From the IMG/VR virus record IMGVR_UViG_2563366865_000004, positions 1-38,371 of that record: a DNA stretch of 38,371 bases; one strand, given 5' to 3'. Positions within the stretch are counted from its first letter, which is position 1; each line of letters starts with the position of its first letter. The notes beneath the pieces were generated by a model. It was not told the DNA's origin. It saw nothing but the letters and a program-made list of their open reading frames with translations, and did no database searches. A program made the position numbers and the translations under genes. The DNA comes from a virus. Lineage: Duplodnaviria > Heunggongvirae > Uroviricota > Caudoviricetes. Of this stretch, positions 23,360-27,129 are shown piece by piece.

Positions 23360-23474
23360 TTGGCCTGTAACAGCCCGTAGACATAATCGAATGTCTTTAC
23401 CTGGCTTTCTGTGGGGATTGGTTTCTTGCGGGATTTGGTGCGTTTGGTAGGAGTAAAAATCAGGTTGTCTAACG

Positions 23475-23645
23475 CTATTTGAGTAATGCTTCGTCGCTGT
23501 CTCGCCACACGTCCTCCTTTTCCTGCGGTAGTGGTAACACCCCTGTTGGTGTTCTTTCACACCGGAGACACCATCGATTCCAGTAAGGTTGATTTGGTCG
23601 GAAGCGGTTATCTTCTTTGCATTCACCGCACCGATAACATCGCAT
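23475..23645 (-). CDS. Small CxxC zinc-finger-like nin-region protein, 56 aa
   Basis: [15 protein letters not shown] ... [11 protein letters not shown] overlaps ninB stop (TGATG). Confidence 0.5.
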
Positions 23646-24073
23646 CATACTGCCCGATCTCCCCATCTCGCTTTCCACTCCAGAGCCAGTCGCGCTTCGT
23701 CTGACCACTTAACGCCACGTTCTGTACCGAATGCCTGTATAAGCTCTAATAACTCCGCAAATTCGCTTACACGCATCCTGCTGGTTGACTGGCCTATTAC
23801 CACAAAGCCATTCCCGGCAAGGTTAGGAACAACATCCTGCTGCTTTAATGCTGCGGTAAACACGCACTTCCAGCTTTCTGCATCCAGCCAGCGACCATGC
23901 CATTCAACCTGACGCGAAACGTCACCAAGGCAAGCCCAAAGCTTCCGATTTTGGTCTAAGCTGCGGTTGCGTTGCTTAAACTCGACAATGATGTCTAAAT
24001 CGCATGTCCTAAGGTACTGAATGGCGTTATATCTTATAGATTCATTGGTAAGGTGATATTTGACACATTTCAT
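23645..24073 (-). CDS. ninB: NinB (Orf-family recombination mediator), 142 aa, with a non-lambda N-terminal 28 residues
   Basis: From [37 protein letters not shown] to the end it matches lambda NinB as remembered; ATG one nt after the HNH stop with GAGGT RBS. Confidence 0.75.
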
Positions 24074-24074
24074 T

Positions 24075-24662
24075 TTAATACCTCGCAAATTCGCCGAAAC
24101 ATTCATCCGCTTTATTTGCATATACTTTATGAGCTTCCTTTGGGTCATCGTAAAACCCAAGATTAACTTTCCTCTTGTTGATTACGATTTGCGCCCTCCA
24201 TTTTCTTGATTTCTTATCCCATGAAACGCCTTTATATCCTGATTTGTTATTTGCCTTTTTGTTTACGTTTTGGATGTTTTGAGATCGAGTTGCCAATCTA
24301 AGGTTTGCTATACGATTGTCATCCCTAACGAGATTTATGTGGTCGATATCACTTTTTGGTAGACTGCCATTCATATAGAGCCACGCCAGCCTGTGTGCCT
24401 TATAAAGTTTTCCATCGACTTTTATTACCCAGTAGCCTTCGCTACTCTTATGCCCTGCGATATCCCCTGCATTCATTCTCTGGCATTTCTTTACTTTCCA
24501 TGTGAATTTCCCTGTTAACTCATCGTAGAGAAGGACTTCTTTTAGTCTCTGCTGAGTTATTTGATTGATTGGTTTGGTTGGGTCTGGAAGAATTTGCTGT
24601 ACTGCGTGAATAGCGTTTTGCTGATGTGCTGGAGATCGAATTTCAAAGGTTAGTTTTTTCAT
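24075..24662 (-). CDS. HNH homing endonuclease (HNH_3 plus AP2-like domain), 195 aa, carrying the first 32 codons of lambda-type ninB as an in-frame N-terminal fusion
   Basis: MKKLTFEIRSPAHQQNAIHAVQQILPDPTKPI (lambda NinB N-terminus) followed by GYWVIKVDGKLYKAHRLAWLYMNGSLPKSDIDHINLVRDDNRIANLRL and SGYKGVSWDKKSRKWRAQI. Confidence 0.8.
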   Translation of the reverse strand: MKKLTFEIRSPAHQQNAIHAVQQILPDPTKPINQITQQRLKEVLLYDELTGKFTWKVKKCQRMNAGDIAGHKSSEGYWVIKVDGKLYKAHRLAWLYMNGSLPKSDIDHINLVRDDNRIANLRLATRSQNIQNVNKKANNKSGYKGVSWDKKSRKWRAQIVINKRKVNLGFYDDPKEAHKVYANKADECFGEFARY

Positions 24663-24680
24663 GACTTCCCTCTCCCCCAA

Positions 24681-24710
24681 ATAAAAAGGCCTGCGATTAC
24701 CAGCAGGCCT
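24681..24710 (-). terminator. tR2-like rho-independent terminator between helicase and nin region
   Basis: Minus strand AGGCCTGC-TGGTAATC-GCAGGCCT followed by TTTTTAT; matches lambda tR2 as remembered. Confidence 0.8.
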
Positions 24711-24735
24711 GTTATTAGCTCAGTGATGTAGATGG

Positions 24736-27129
24736 TCATACGTCCGCCCCTTGTGCATATCGTCTGCCACGTGCAGCGGGTGCATTTGATGTTGTGCAAA
24801 TCTGTCTGGCTTCATCCTGGTCACATGCAACAAAGTGTCCGTTGCAGAACCGCTGGTAAACCGTACCAAGTGAGCCAAAACGGTTTTTCGTCACGATGAT
24901 TTCAGCAAATGGCGCGGCGCTACTGTTCTCGTCATATACCGCTTCCCGATAGAGCATGATGATTGAGTCTGCGTCCTGCTCAATGCTTCCTGAATCACGC
25001 AAATCTGCGTTTGTCGGGCGTTTGTTTGGTCGCTTCTCAACATCGCGCGAAAGCTGACTCAGGGAGATAACAGGCGTTTTCAGGTCTTTCGCCATCGCCT
25101 TAAGGCTTCCTGAGATGTGAGCAATTGCGAGGTCGTTGCGGTCTGCTTTCGGCTTCTCAATCAGGCCAAGATAATCCGCCATGATGAGTGACAGGTTTGG
25201 ATTTTCCTGTTTGTGCCGTTCTGCGATTGAGCGTATTTCTTCGACCGATAACCGCGAGGCATCGACTACCCATACATCCAAATCTGCAAGCTGACTCATG
25301 CCGTTAGCAACACGCGCCCAGCCTTCGTCATCCATCGATGCAGGATTTCGCAGTACGCTAACCGACATCCTCCCGGCGTTGGCAATGCTTCGCTCTGCAA
25401 TCTGCAATGCGCTCATTTCCATTGAGAAAATCAATACCCCGCGCCGGACGTCAGAACCAGGAATAACGCGGCTTGCAACGCCTTCGGCAATCTTCAGCGC
25501 CAGTTCCGTATTGTGCGTAACGATGTAATCCGTTGTCACATAGAGATGGCTAGGATGGCTTACCATGATGCAGAGACACTCTTCTGGCTCAACAACTTCA
25601 ACCGATTTGATACCCACACCAAGGTCGCCAAGCCTGTTAATCCCGAGATTTTTGCGTAAACGTGGTGAGTGAATTTGCTCTATCAAAGATGATGGCAACT
25701 TCATGCTGACCATGTGTGCATCAAGTCCGTCATGCTTCTCTCCTTTGTACGTGTAAACTATTCCCGTCCTGCTGGATTCTTTGGCGGTTCCACCTAAAGA
25801 TCTAACAAGCCTTACTAATCCTTTAGCTAATTTCTGACTGGATGAACTAAAGCGGATGCATCCGGACTTCTCAACCCAGCCATCTGTCTCGAGAAGGCCA
25901 GTTAAAACACCGGTACGTATTTCTTTGCTAGCACTAAAAATTTCTGCTGGGATTTCCTTCTCGGACGCACCTTTCCCGATCATCCCAATGCCACGTAGTT
26001 TGTCCAATAGTGGGTTCTTCTGGCCTTTTTGGTTGCTTATCAAATAATCATTCTCTCCTACCTTAACCAGTCGCAGTGGTGCAATTGCATCACTCATGCG
26101 GCTCAGGACATATTCTTCCGAGTTGGTGAATTTGATGCCTTTTATCAACGAACCGTCACCAAGTAGAGCCCCAATAACCCAACCATCAAGGGGAATATTT
26201 TTACCAAAGTCTCCGGTCAAGGATGGCACTCTTATTCTTCCCTGATAACGTGTTTTTTGTAGCATCCCAGCCAGCGCATCAGTATCAACAACGCGCTTAC
26301 CAGTAAATCTTGATGATGAAATTTCCCATAAGTGGTTGTCGGCACATTTCACGCTACGTCCGTCTTCAAAGGTGACTAAATATGTGAATTTCTTCCCTTG
26401 CGGGAAGACGCCAATTACCTCCGAAGGAAGCCCGTCTATTGACGCGATGCGATCGCCAATTTTGACTTCTCCGTGAGTAGTCCAGGTGCCATCTGCAAGT
26501 AAAATCCCTTCGCTTAGCGCCATTGCTTTCCCCATACCAGGACGAGCAGCGATAATCACCAGGTCTTCCGCGTTCATCCCTCCGGTGATGGCGTCAAGTT
26601 CTTCGATTCCGGTCTTCAGGGTATCTGACTCTTCTCCGTTCCTCAGACGCCTGTCAAGCGTGTCAGTGTAGTCAGTTATGATTTCCCCTAACCGTACAGG
26701 TTTAACCTCGTCACGGGGCTTTCTGATGGCTGAAAGACGTTTTACCAGTTCATCCATCGCCTGACTCGATGCGTCGATGGTTCCGCTCTGAATTGGTTCA
26801 CGCATTTCATCCATGATTTCCAGCACCAGACGGCGGTGATAGTTATCCGCGACCATTCCGGCATATCCCTTCAGGTTTGCGGCGCTCGGGCAGTTTTTGC
26901 TGGTCATCAGGATTGACGTGAAATGCTCCTCTCCGCACGCCTCGGCAACCATCAACGCGTCGATTAGGTTTCTGTTTCGCGCCTGCTTCCGGATAACTTC
27001 GAAGGCTTTCCGGTAGAGCGGAATTGAAAACGCTTCCGGCTCAAGCGTTGCCAGAACGTCACTGGCGGTTGGAGTTAATCCACCAATCAGCAGGCCACCG
27101 ATAACGCTCGCTTCGATATCCTGTCTCAT
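24736..27129 (-). CDS. DnaB-type replicative helicase (P22 gp12-like) precursor, 797 aa, interrupted by a 339-aa intein in the Walker A motif
   Basis: N-extein 201 aa ending AARPGMGK and C-extein 257 aa starting [10 protein letters not shown] rejoin to a canonical P-loop; exteins total 458 aa. Confidence 0.9.
25510..26526 (-). mobile_element. Intein (339 aa) with LAGLIDADG homing endonuclease domain; class-3-like features
   Basis: Starts [10 protein letters not shown] (Ala1), ends YIVTHN with +1 Thr; Trp in block B (ADNHLWEI), Cys in block F region (EECLCIM), Thr three residues from the C-terminus; LAGLIDADG-like [14 protein letters not shown] and [13 protein letters not shown]. Confidence 0.8.

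Follow-up and report, generated by a model that had tools for sequence, protein, structure and literature searches.

The stretch of DNA analysed here, referred to as the window, comprises positions 1 to 38,371 (38,371 nucleotides, nt) of the IMG/VR virus record IMGVR_UViG_2563366865_000004, a member of the Caudoviricetes. It is a lambdoid/P22-like prophage whose minus strand carries the replication genes, the nin region and the late genes in this order, and its ninB gene (orf) harbours the element that is the subject of this study. Two open reading frames (ORFs) are present at this site (Table 1). The first one starts with 32 codons of ninB and continues in frame into an endonuclease with HNH_3 and AP2 domains that resembles I-HmuI; the second one, separated from the stop codon of the first by a single base (24074) and starting with the ATG at 24073-24071, codes for a full-length NinB with a different N-terminus, called NinB' in the following. 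An initial annotation of the window, made from its letters, had described a lambda NinB N-terminus at the beginning of the ORF from 24662, an in-frame continuation into an HNH_3 and AP2-like endonuclease and, one nt past the stop, a new ATG with its own ribosome-binding site that opens a 142-residue NinB; all of this was borne out. Position 24680 is merely an in-frame TTG upstream of the fusion ATG.

Residues 1 to 32 of the fusion protein are identical (100%) to those of lambda NinB (PDB 1PC6, E 5e-15), and the NinB hidden Markov model detects the 32-residue prefix in all copies of the element (E about 1e-6). The 30 nt upstream of the fusion ATG, including the ribosome-binding region and the hairpin, are identical to lambda as well, and in the alignment to lambda the hairpin and T-run form the left limit of the shared sequence; the matching lambda sequence between ren and ninB is the tR2 region. 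Codons 1 to 32 are the displaced native 5' end of ninB, which would give the endonuclease its start codon and the element a left homology arm, and the native ribosome-binding region now appears to serve the fusion ORF. The initial annotation had likewise seen the old 5' end of ninB as left behind in fusion with the endonuclease, and the comparison with lambda that it had proposed defines the boundaries. Homology is continuous up to ...CCAACCAAACCAATC (codon 32) and restarts at CGCAACCGCAGC (Arg-Asn-Arg-Ser), with CGC AAC CGC (R35) as the first codons of lambda-like ninB sequence, and the junction alignment places the insertion point directly after ninB codon 32. Here 595 nt (24566-23972), made up of the HNH body, its TAA, one A and 34 replacement codons, stand in place of the 18 nt GTAGTAACCATTCAGGAA of lambda. 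The final seven replacement codons (ATC ATT GTC GAG TTT AAG CAA) correspond to ATC GTA GTA ACC ATT CAG GAA of lambda with about half of the positions being different, and probably represent a variant of the presumed target site.

Table 1. Features of the interrupted ninB locus in window coordinates.
Feature	Position	Strand	Description	Basis
Terminator-like hairpin and T-run	24679..24710 (hairpin 24710-24687)	minus	upstream of ninB	terminator scan; same as lambda
Native ninB ribosome-binding region	24663..24678	minus	GGGGGAGAGGGAAGTC	matches lambda upstream of the ninB ATG
Fusion ORF, 195 aa	ATG 24662 to TAA 24077-24075	minus	NinB 1-32 and I-HmuI-like HNH-AP2 in frame	
Resident ninB codons 1-32	24567..24662	minus	MKKLTFEIRSPAHQQNAIHAVQQILPDPTKPI	100% identical to 1PC6 residues 1-32
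HNH-AP2 body	24075..24566	minus	residues 33-195 and stop TAA	Pfam, AlphaFold2, Foldseek
HNH_3 domain	24404-24276	minus		Pfam
AP2 domain	24242-24120	minus		Pfam
Shine-Dalgarno sequence of NinB'	24081..24084	minus	GAGG, 7 nt before ATG 24073	read from the sequence
Replacement ninB 5' end	23972..24073	minus	34 codons	part of the cassette; 2 haplotypes in 20 loci
Resident ninB remainder	23645..23971	minus	codons 35-142 and stop	94% nt identity to lambda
Whole cassette, 595 nt	23972..24566	minus		junction alignment and diversity profile
NinB' ORF, 142 aa	23645..24073	minus	restored full-length NinB/Orf	Pfam NinB, 1PC6, AlphaFold2

The endonuclease part of the fusion protein matches Pfam HNH_3 (PF13392) at residues 87-129 with 60.8 bits (curated cutoff 24.8). 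The AP2 match (29.4 bits) stays under its cutoff of 33.3 and is thus inconclusive from the sequence alone, but the AP2 fold was confirmed on a structural model. This AlphaFold2 (AF2) model was obtained from 56 homologues with a predicted local distance difference test (pLDDT) score of 90.2 and has the beta-beta-alpha-metal fold of HNH_3/I-HmuI-like enzymes. Its top match in the PDB is I-HmuI (1U3E; Foldseek probability 1.00, E 4.5e-3, 96 columns, root-mean-square deviation (rmsd) 3.6), and it also matches the plant AP2 domains of TEM1 and ERF1 (probability 1.00, rmsd 1.3-2.0). Residues 1-36 are modelled as a lone helix of lower confidence. Asp107, His108, Asn116, Asn120, Arg122 and Asn132 are invariant over the 56 homologues and all of them are kept in the window; by analogy to I-HmuI, catalytic and metal-binding roles may be assigned to the D-H...N...N residues among them. 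No uninterrupted NinB that contains the HNH segment was found.

In the lineage to which the window belongs (lineage 1), the fusion ORF has no in-frame ATG, GTG or TTG between codon 1 and Met63, and an internal start of the HNH gene was rejected for this lineage. Free-standing relatives of the HNH protein have ≈160-168 residues and start at the position of residue ≈35. Since the endonuclease has no start codon of its own where its relatives begin, the simplest reading is that it is translated from the ninB start. A promoter scan within the cassette gave no promoter-like signal above the shuffled expectation. The NCBI pipeline splits the 195-codon ORF into a 39-codon 'HNH endonuclease pseudogene, missing C-terminus' and a separate HNH protein (WP_223202053.1 or WP_024193984.1) with an annotated ATA or ATC start, as in locus L001 (3099-3686) and at the equivalent positions of L002 and L006-L011. 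These ATA/ATC starts are a systematic annotation artefact of the fusion.

NinB' matches Pfam NinB (PF05772) with 157 bits over profile positions 4-131 of 131 and 1PC6 with an E value of 3e-73. According to the initial annotation its first 28 residues were unrelated to lambda. We found instead that the replacement part comprises 34 codons and is homologous to the NinB N-terminus in spite of its divergence: it is 26% identical to that of lambda, with a deletion of a 4-residue loop in the alignment, and retains the invariant Asn16 and the NAI motif. In the AF2 model of NinB' (pLDDT 85.9) it is predicted as a strand (residues 3-7), a helix (11-23) and a second strand (29-33), which may be the layout of the NinB N-terminus. 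The nearest N-termini, as compared by eye, are those of distant NinB clades without the PTKP loop, e.g. P0346. From R35 on the protein is lambda-like (the initial annotation had put this change after residue 28), and the replacement part rejoins the resident gene at the conserved motif RNRSLDQN. The Shine-Dalgarno sequence of NinB' is written within the HNH codons GCG AGG (Ala-Arg). Every ninB allele with the replacement N-terminus whose context could be read has the fused HNH upstream; a donor allele with a separate HNH gene upstream, a type that the initial annotation had proposed to look for, was not among them. The replacement N-terminus belongs to the mobile cassette.

In total, 30 loci of lineage 1 were collected from E. 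coli, Salmonella and metagenomes; the sources are 8 of 5,426 complete E. coli genomes, Salmonella, ten IMG/VR contigs, five metagenome contigs and four more assemblies, and the 90% cluster of the fusion protein has 592 members. The cassette was absent, in near or distant form, from all 50,697 phage records searched and from the 100,044 species-representative genomes of GTDB. At least 152 phage records, among them those of lambda, P22-like and Shiga toxin (Stx) phages, and ≈2,100 E. coli genomes have an uninterrupted ninB site, so that homologous ninB genes are polymorphic for presence or absence of the element at a fixed site. Junctions and frames were inspected at 25 loci, and the junctions are identical in all of them; the five loci added later share the gene layout. 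The HNH frame is intact in 24 of the 25 and so are all 23 of the 23 complete NinB' frames; two copies start with GTG. The ninB remainders are of a lambda type, a Salmonella type or a very divergent type of 134 residues (L021, L096). The surroundings vary even more: there are at least five distinct upstream contexts (with a DnaB-type helicase, a DnaC-like ATPase, a Toprim primase, small ORFs or an insertion sequence as neighbour) and several downstream ones (ninC, Dam-type and MT-A70 methylases, ninE or another HNH gene).

An alignment of 20 loci was used for a diversity profile. Nucleotide diversity (pi) is 0.006 in the HNH body (7 haplotypes) and 0.008 in the replacement codons (2 haplotypes), rises to 0.06 in the native 5' fragment (14 haplotypes) and 0.12 in the ninB remainder (19 haplotypes) and exceeds 0.5 within 100 nt beyond ninB, where the sequences of the different loci share no relationship. 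On the left side pi decreases within the 5' fragment towards the junction, from 0.085 over 0.060 to 0.016. A low-diversity element with such a co-conversion gradient is characteristic of a homing endonuclease gene (HEG); in a population, a homing element is expected to leave just such a trace, a near-invariant block that resides in many ninB alleles and prophage backbones. The pattern fits an element that moves by homing and co-conversion rather than an accident.

A second lineage with the same layout was reached by a search with the chimeric NinB as query and is present in prophages of four Cronobacter species. Its fusion protein has 192 residues and consists of a Cronobacter-type NinB N-terminus (MRKQTFEIRTPLVQQNAI...) and an HNH part that is 67% identical to that of the window. 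The TGA of the HNH gene directly abuts the ATG (spacer of 0 nt) of a 142-residue NinB that opens with MKTIRYHLIDESVRYNAIQFIRTCNLDLIVEVKQ and continues as Cronobacter-type NinB. The Cronobacter junction, searched for as an exact pattern, had no match in IMG/VR. The replacement N-termini of both lineages are 68% identical to each other and just 26% identical to the local native N-termini, which in turn share 63% identity between the lineages. This indicates that the HNH gene and the replacement N-terminus diverged together as one unit, whereas the flanking parts of ninB are those of the host phage. Between the lineages the proportions of synonymous and nonsynonymous differences (pS and pN) are 0.77 (saturated) and 0.21 for the HNH part (pN/pS 0.27) and 0.68 and 0.17 for the replacement N-terminus (pN/pS 0.25); both are therefore coding sequences under purifying selection. 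Although synonymous sites are otherwise saturated, the 12-nt segment AATTTGCGAGGT that bears the Shine-Dalgarno sequence is identical in both lineages, and both use the Arg codon AGG in it. AGG is a rare Arg codon in E. coli. The design of the gene-end arrangement is old, conserved and mobile. The homing or co-conversion proposed in the initial annotation gains support from the invariant cassette, the second lineage and the purifying selection; its assumption of a single event has to be given up.

Taken together, we assume with a probability of about 0.72 that a free-standing HNH-AP2 homing endonuclease gene resides inside ninB as a 595-nt 'gene-end replacement' cassette; cleavage and homing by the endonuclease are presumed. 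The cassette would consist of three parts. An endonuclease frame without a start follows ninB codon 32 and would be made from the ribosome-binding site and ATG of ninB with a NinB tag of 32 residues; then come the stop, a spacer of 0 or 1 nt and a Shine-Dalgarno sequence within the last endonuclease codons; finally, a portable and divergent version of the first 34 ninB codons would restore full-length NinB. The fusion protein is presumably translated from the ninB initiation signals within the early rightward operon, and NinB' by coupling or via the embedded Shine-Dalgarno sequence, giving a presumably functional protein. During lytic growth or induction the enzyme would nick or cut a cassette-free ninB around codons 32-38, and repair would copy the cassette from the cassette-bearing genome with the 96-nt native 5' fragment and the lambda-like ninB remainder (≈330 nt), the putative right homology arm, as arms. 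An allele with the cassette would be immune, as its site is divided at the left and a variant stands at the right (ATCATTGTCGAGTTTAAGCAA in place of ATCGTAGTAACCATTCAGGAA). Because both arms lie within ninB, the element can move between mosaic phages with differing neighbour genes.

Several observations weigh against such a homing cassette. The element is rare though intact targets are abundant (≈2,100 of the 5,426 E. coli genomes have ninB-like sequence), and one copy (L010) contains a nonsense codon. In L021 and L096 the cassette is joined to the divergent ninB ≈12 nt past the junction, which mosaic recombination of the ordinary kind, taking place at the conserved RNRS motif, could explain equally well. 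The NinB' model superimposes on 1PC6 with a template modelling (TM) score of just 0.53 (Foldseek E 6e-15, 141 columns), and the Cronobacter fusion ORF has an in-frame GTG (V of ARVKEV) that could be an internal start. Moreover, a fusion-less ancestral arrangement at ninB was not found: neither a ninB beginning with MKCVKYH that is preceded by an HNH gene with a start codon of its own nor such a ninB without HNH gene was detected in a search of 5.8 billion proteins, a profile search of 1.84 billion representatives, IMG/VR, a metagenome pattern scan or the GTDB representatives.

The rarity and the nonsense allele would also be in line with a dead recombination scar, and a conserved motif such as the one at which the junctions of L021 and L096 lie is typical of mosaic boundaries. 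In this reading, an HNH gene and the 5' end of a foreign ninB were joined once illegitimately to a lambda-type ninB and then spread by ordinary mosaic recombination, with an endonuclease that is no longer active on ninB. We consider this unlikely, as the diversity of the cassette is 10-20 times below that of the ninB coding sequence next to it, also at synonymous sites, and 24 of the 25 HNH frames are intact. The second lineage has furthermore retained the fusion and its frame, the catalytic residues and the Shine-Dalgarno sequence at a pN/pS of ≈0.27 and with saturated synonymous change, and a dead gene would hardly be so conserved. Purifying selection on the HNH part would also be compatible with a domesticated weapon for competition or exclusion, by which the nuclease harms lambdoid phages, co-infecting or resident, with an unprotected ninB and the cassette spreads as a by-product. 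The 32-residue tag may in this case have acquired a role of its own, for example by association with NinB or with recombination intermediates. The gene is located in the early pR operon among recombination genes, phages of the Stx, lambda and P22 types widely carry intact targets, and intron-encoded endonucleases reportedly can mediate interference between phages (PMC11620839). This explanation, however, has nothing that sets it apart from plain selfish homing; in the model the tag is a solitary helix of low confidence that is not packed on the enzyme, it tracks the local ninB allele, and the rarity of the element speaks against a strong benefit. A weapon appears about as improbable as a scar.

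Far less probable still is a self-splicing element, either a group I intron or an intein, the removal of which would restore a NinB of lambda length and leave the downstream N-terminus untranslated. The endonuclease ORF is in frame with the upstream exon, like many intron ORFs, and joining codon 32 to replacement codon 29 would yield a NinB of 146 residues. Positions 23400-24900 gave no Rfam match even at E<=1, though, and just ≈100 nt lie outside the HNH ORF; these code for a NinB N-terminus on which purifying selection acts and to which a start codon and a conserved Shine-Dalgarno sequence belong. An intein is excluded by the stop codon that ends the HNH frame ahead of the new start, and the intron and the intein were both rejected.

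Returning to the gene-end replacement cassette, we compared the N-terminal extension of the HNH protein with the start of the downstream gene at 71 loci of HNH relatives. Two IMG/VR contigs show the same arrangement at a tail-fibre gene (L031, 2935-4204, and L046, ≈749-2012), with HNH proteins that are 42-49% identical to that of the window. Their extensions read MPKDKVSEWSATAANNTDVAEP|LTQEYL... and MAKTKISEFSSTPVNNTDNKKDEI|LTQEYL..., so that the 22-24 native N-terminal residues are joined in frame to HNH-AP2, and no start codon is present near the start of the HNH family. The downstream tail-fibre genes open with MAKNKVSEWSSTPANNTDIAG... or MAKNKISEYSSVAANNVDIAG..., are full-length and have a slightly different N-terminus that matches the extension in tblastn (E 5e-11 and 6e-7); their ATG overlaps the HNH stop by 8 nt. 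The other 16 weak matches of the screen (E 1e-2 to 7e-6) were low-complexity or wrong-frame noise. At three further loci (L029, 2959-5078; L042, 313-2843; L044, 187-2309) the HNH gene has its own ATG and is directly followed by the gene for the terminase large subunit, the ATG of which is overlapped by the HNH stop by 7 nt. With an own ATG and a plain overlap, this arrangement is a plausible precursor of the fusion design. The terminase of L042 has 669 residues versus 533 and changes to GGNRCLAGDQ at the Walker A region, which looks like an intein insertion.

The origin of the cassette might thus be sought in an HEG located directly upstream of its target and overlapping the target's start, as seen for the relatives at the terminase gene. 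Such a donor would then have invaded a genome without upstream homology, where one side of the break was possibly resolved by illegitimate joining and the in-frame product was selected. With an origin by one-sided homology, it would also be understandable that the design recurs at a tail-fibre gene. At roughly even odds we extend this to the proposal that phage HNH-AP2 endonucleases generally live in protein-coding genes, with neither intron nor intein, by taking over the start codon via an in-frame fusion to the displaced N-terminus and bringing a portable, co-evolving replacement N-terminus whose translation is coupled to the endonuclease stop, a design that would have arisen at or spread to at least two unrelated targets and would probably be a repeatable outcome of one-sided-homology repair starting from upstream-parked HEGs.

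Other endonuclease genes were noticed in the vicinity of ninB. HNH-AP2 relatives with ≈42% identity to the window enzyme sit ≈150 nt downstream of a ninB in IMG/VR prophage contigs (L067-L072, L077-L079; ninB was detected in L069, L070 and L072), which suggests that this subfamily is more widely associated with ninB flanks. In the prophage of E. coli E200086 (L010, 5681-6396) ninF is broken after HVCERC by a different HNH gene, and its C-terminal fragment (...CAELMSDPNSSMYEEEDDE) remains downstream, annotated as a pseudogene; L106 has the same layout. Without a replacement end this is a plain disruption and was dismissed as a second example of the cassette design. In E. coli TUM1880 (L008, 1672-2880) an ISVsa5 (IS4-like) transposase gene is inserted downstream of the Toprim replication gene and ahead of the ninB::HNH fusion; the insertion has left the tR2-like sequence before ninB intact. 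Directly upstream of ninB in the window (24736-27129, minus strand) a DnaB-type replicative helicase of 797 residues is encoded. DnaB_C matches it in two stretches, and a LAGLIDADG_3/Hom_end match at residues ≈393-454 precedes the best stretch (540-762). The helicase looks as if it contained an intein that includes a homing endonuclease domain, in which case this prophage would have two selfish endonuclease elements of different kinds next to each other.

To our knowledge, HEGs are thought to persist in essential or conserved genes only by means of introns or inteins, between genes or, rarely, by splitting a gene. The cassette would be a further solution found by phages, in which the element brings its own copy of a gene end and uses the old end as a start codon. 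It would explain why both homology arms are kept in one conserved gene of a mosaic genome while the neighbours are shuffled, and it accounts for the recurrent NCBI artefact of a 'pseudogene' next to an HNH gene with an ATA or ATC start. It would also provide a mechanism for hybrid genes and for swaps of N-terminal modules in phage proteins, tail fibres included. The predictions made for the cassette are readily testable, for lambda can dispense with ninB/orf, a gene that is fully tractable and easy to score. In the open-access literature we found no account of a ninB with a homing endonuclease or of this design of partial duplication and in-frame fusion in phages.

The closest precedent is given by mobile ORFs of fungal mitochondria, as found in atp6 of Allomyces macrogynus and in atp6, atp9, cox2 and nad3 of Glomus (PMC3630166), where Paquin et al. 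1994 is cited for fungal mobile ORFs that carry a foreign gene end. In both cases a free-standing endonuclease ORF in a coding gene comes with a divergent replacement gene end, the insertion displaces the native end and leaves the hybrid gene intact, and the endonuclease ORF is (in fungi sometimes) in phase with the host gene. The ninB cassette shares the endonuclease ORF, the replacement end and the displaced native end, but as a mirror image: the 5' end is replaced here, whereas the fungal elements replace the 3' end and supply a foreign C-terminus. It also differs in the endonuclease (HNH-AP2 versus LAGLIDADG or GIY-YIG) and in its residence in a bacteriophage rather than an organelle. Here the displaced end is no dead remnant but probably the source of the start codon, and the endonuclease stop and the replacement end are presumably coupled. 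Intronless homing by the free-standing phage endonucleases SegF, SegG and SegB of T4 and MobE (PMC2790892, PMC2988022, PMC2330249) resembles the present case in the location of the endonuclease gene beside its target, a target-site polymorphism for immunity, co-conversion of the flanks and a patchy presence in related phages; those genes, however, are intergenic and have their own starts, whereas the ninB element is fused to the target ORF in which it lies and comes with a spare end of this gene. Genes split by HEGs, such as Aeh1 nrdA/mobE, T4 gene 39/60 with mobA and nrdD of FelixO1-like phages (PMC2988022, PMC4837284), likewise have an endonuclease gene within the coding region and keep the host function without intron or intein, but do so by two polypeptides that reassemble, whereas ninB is restored as a single full-length protein by a duplicate N-terminal module. 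With I-HmuI (1U3E) the enzyme shares the HNH_3 catalytic core as its best structural match, at ≈23% sequence identity over the 96 aligned positions, and with HNH-AP2 endonucleases the AP2-type DNA-binding domain; I-HmuI is encoded by an intron, and the ninB enzyme is intron-free. A similar fusion of a resident N-terminus in frame to an HNH homing-type endonuclease is gene 31 of the P22-like phage epsilon34 (eaE N-terminus::HNH), mentioned in passing by its annotators (PMC2629481). Their description mentions neither a replacement N-terminus nor a restored gene, and the HNH protein of epsilon34 is of a different lineage, in contrast to the cassette of the window, in which the fusion is followed by a complete NinB'.

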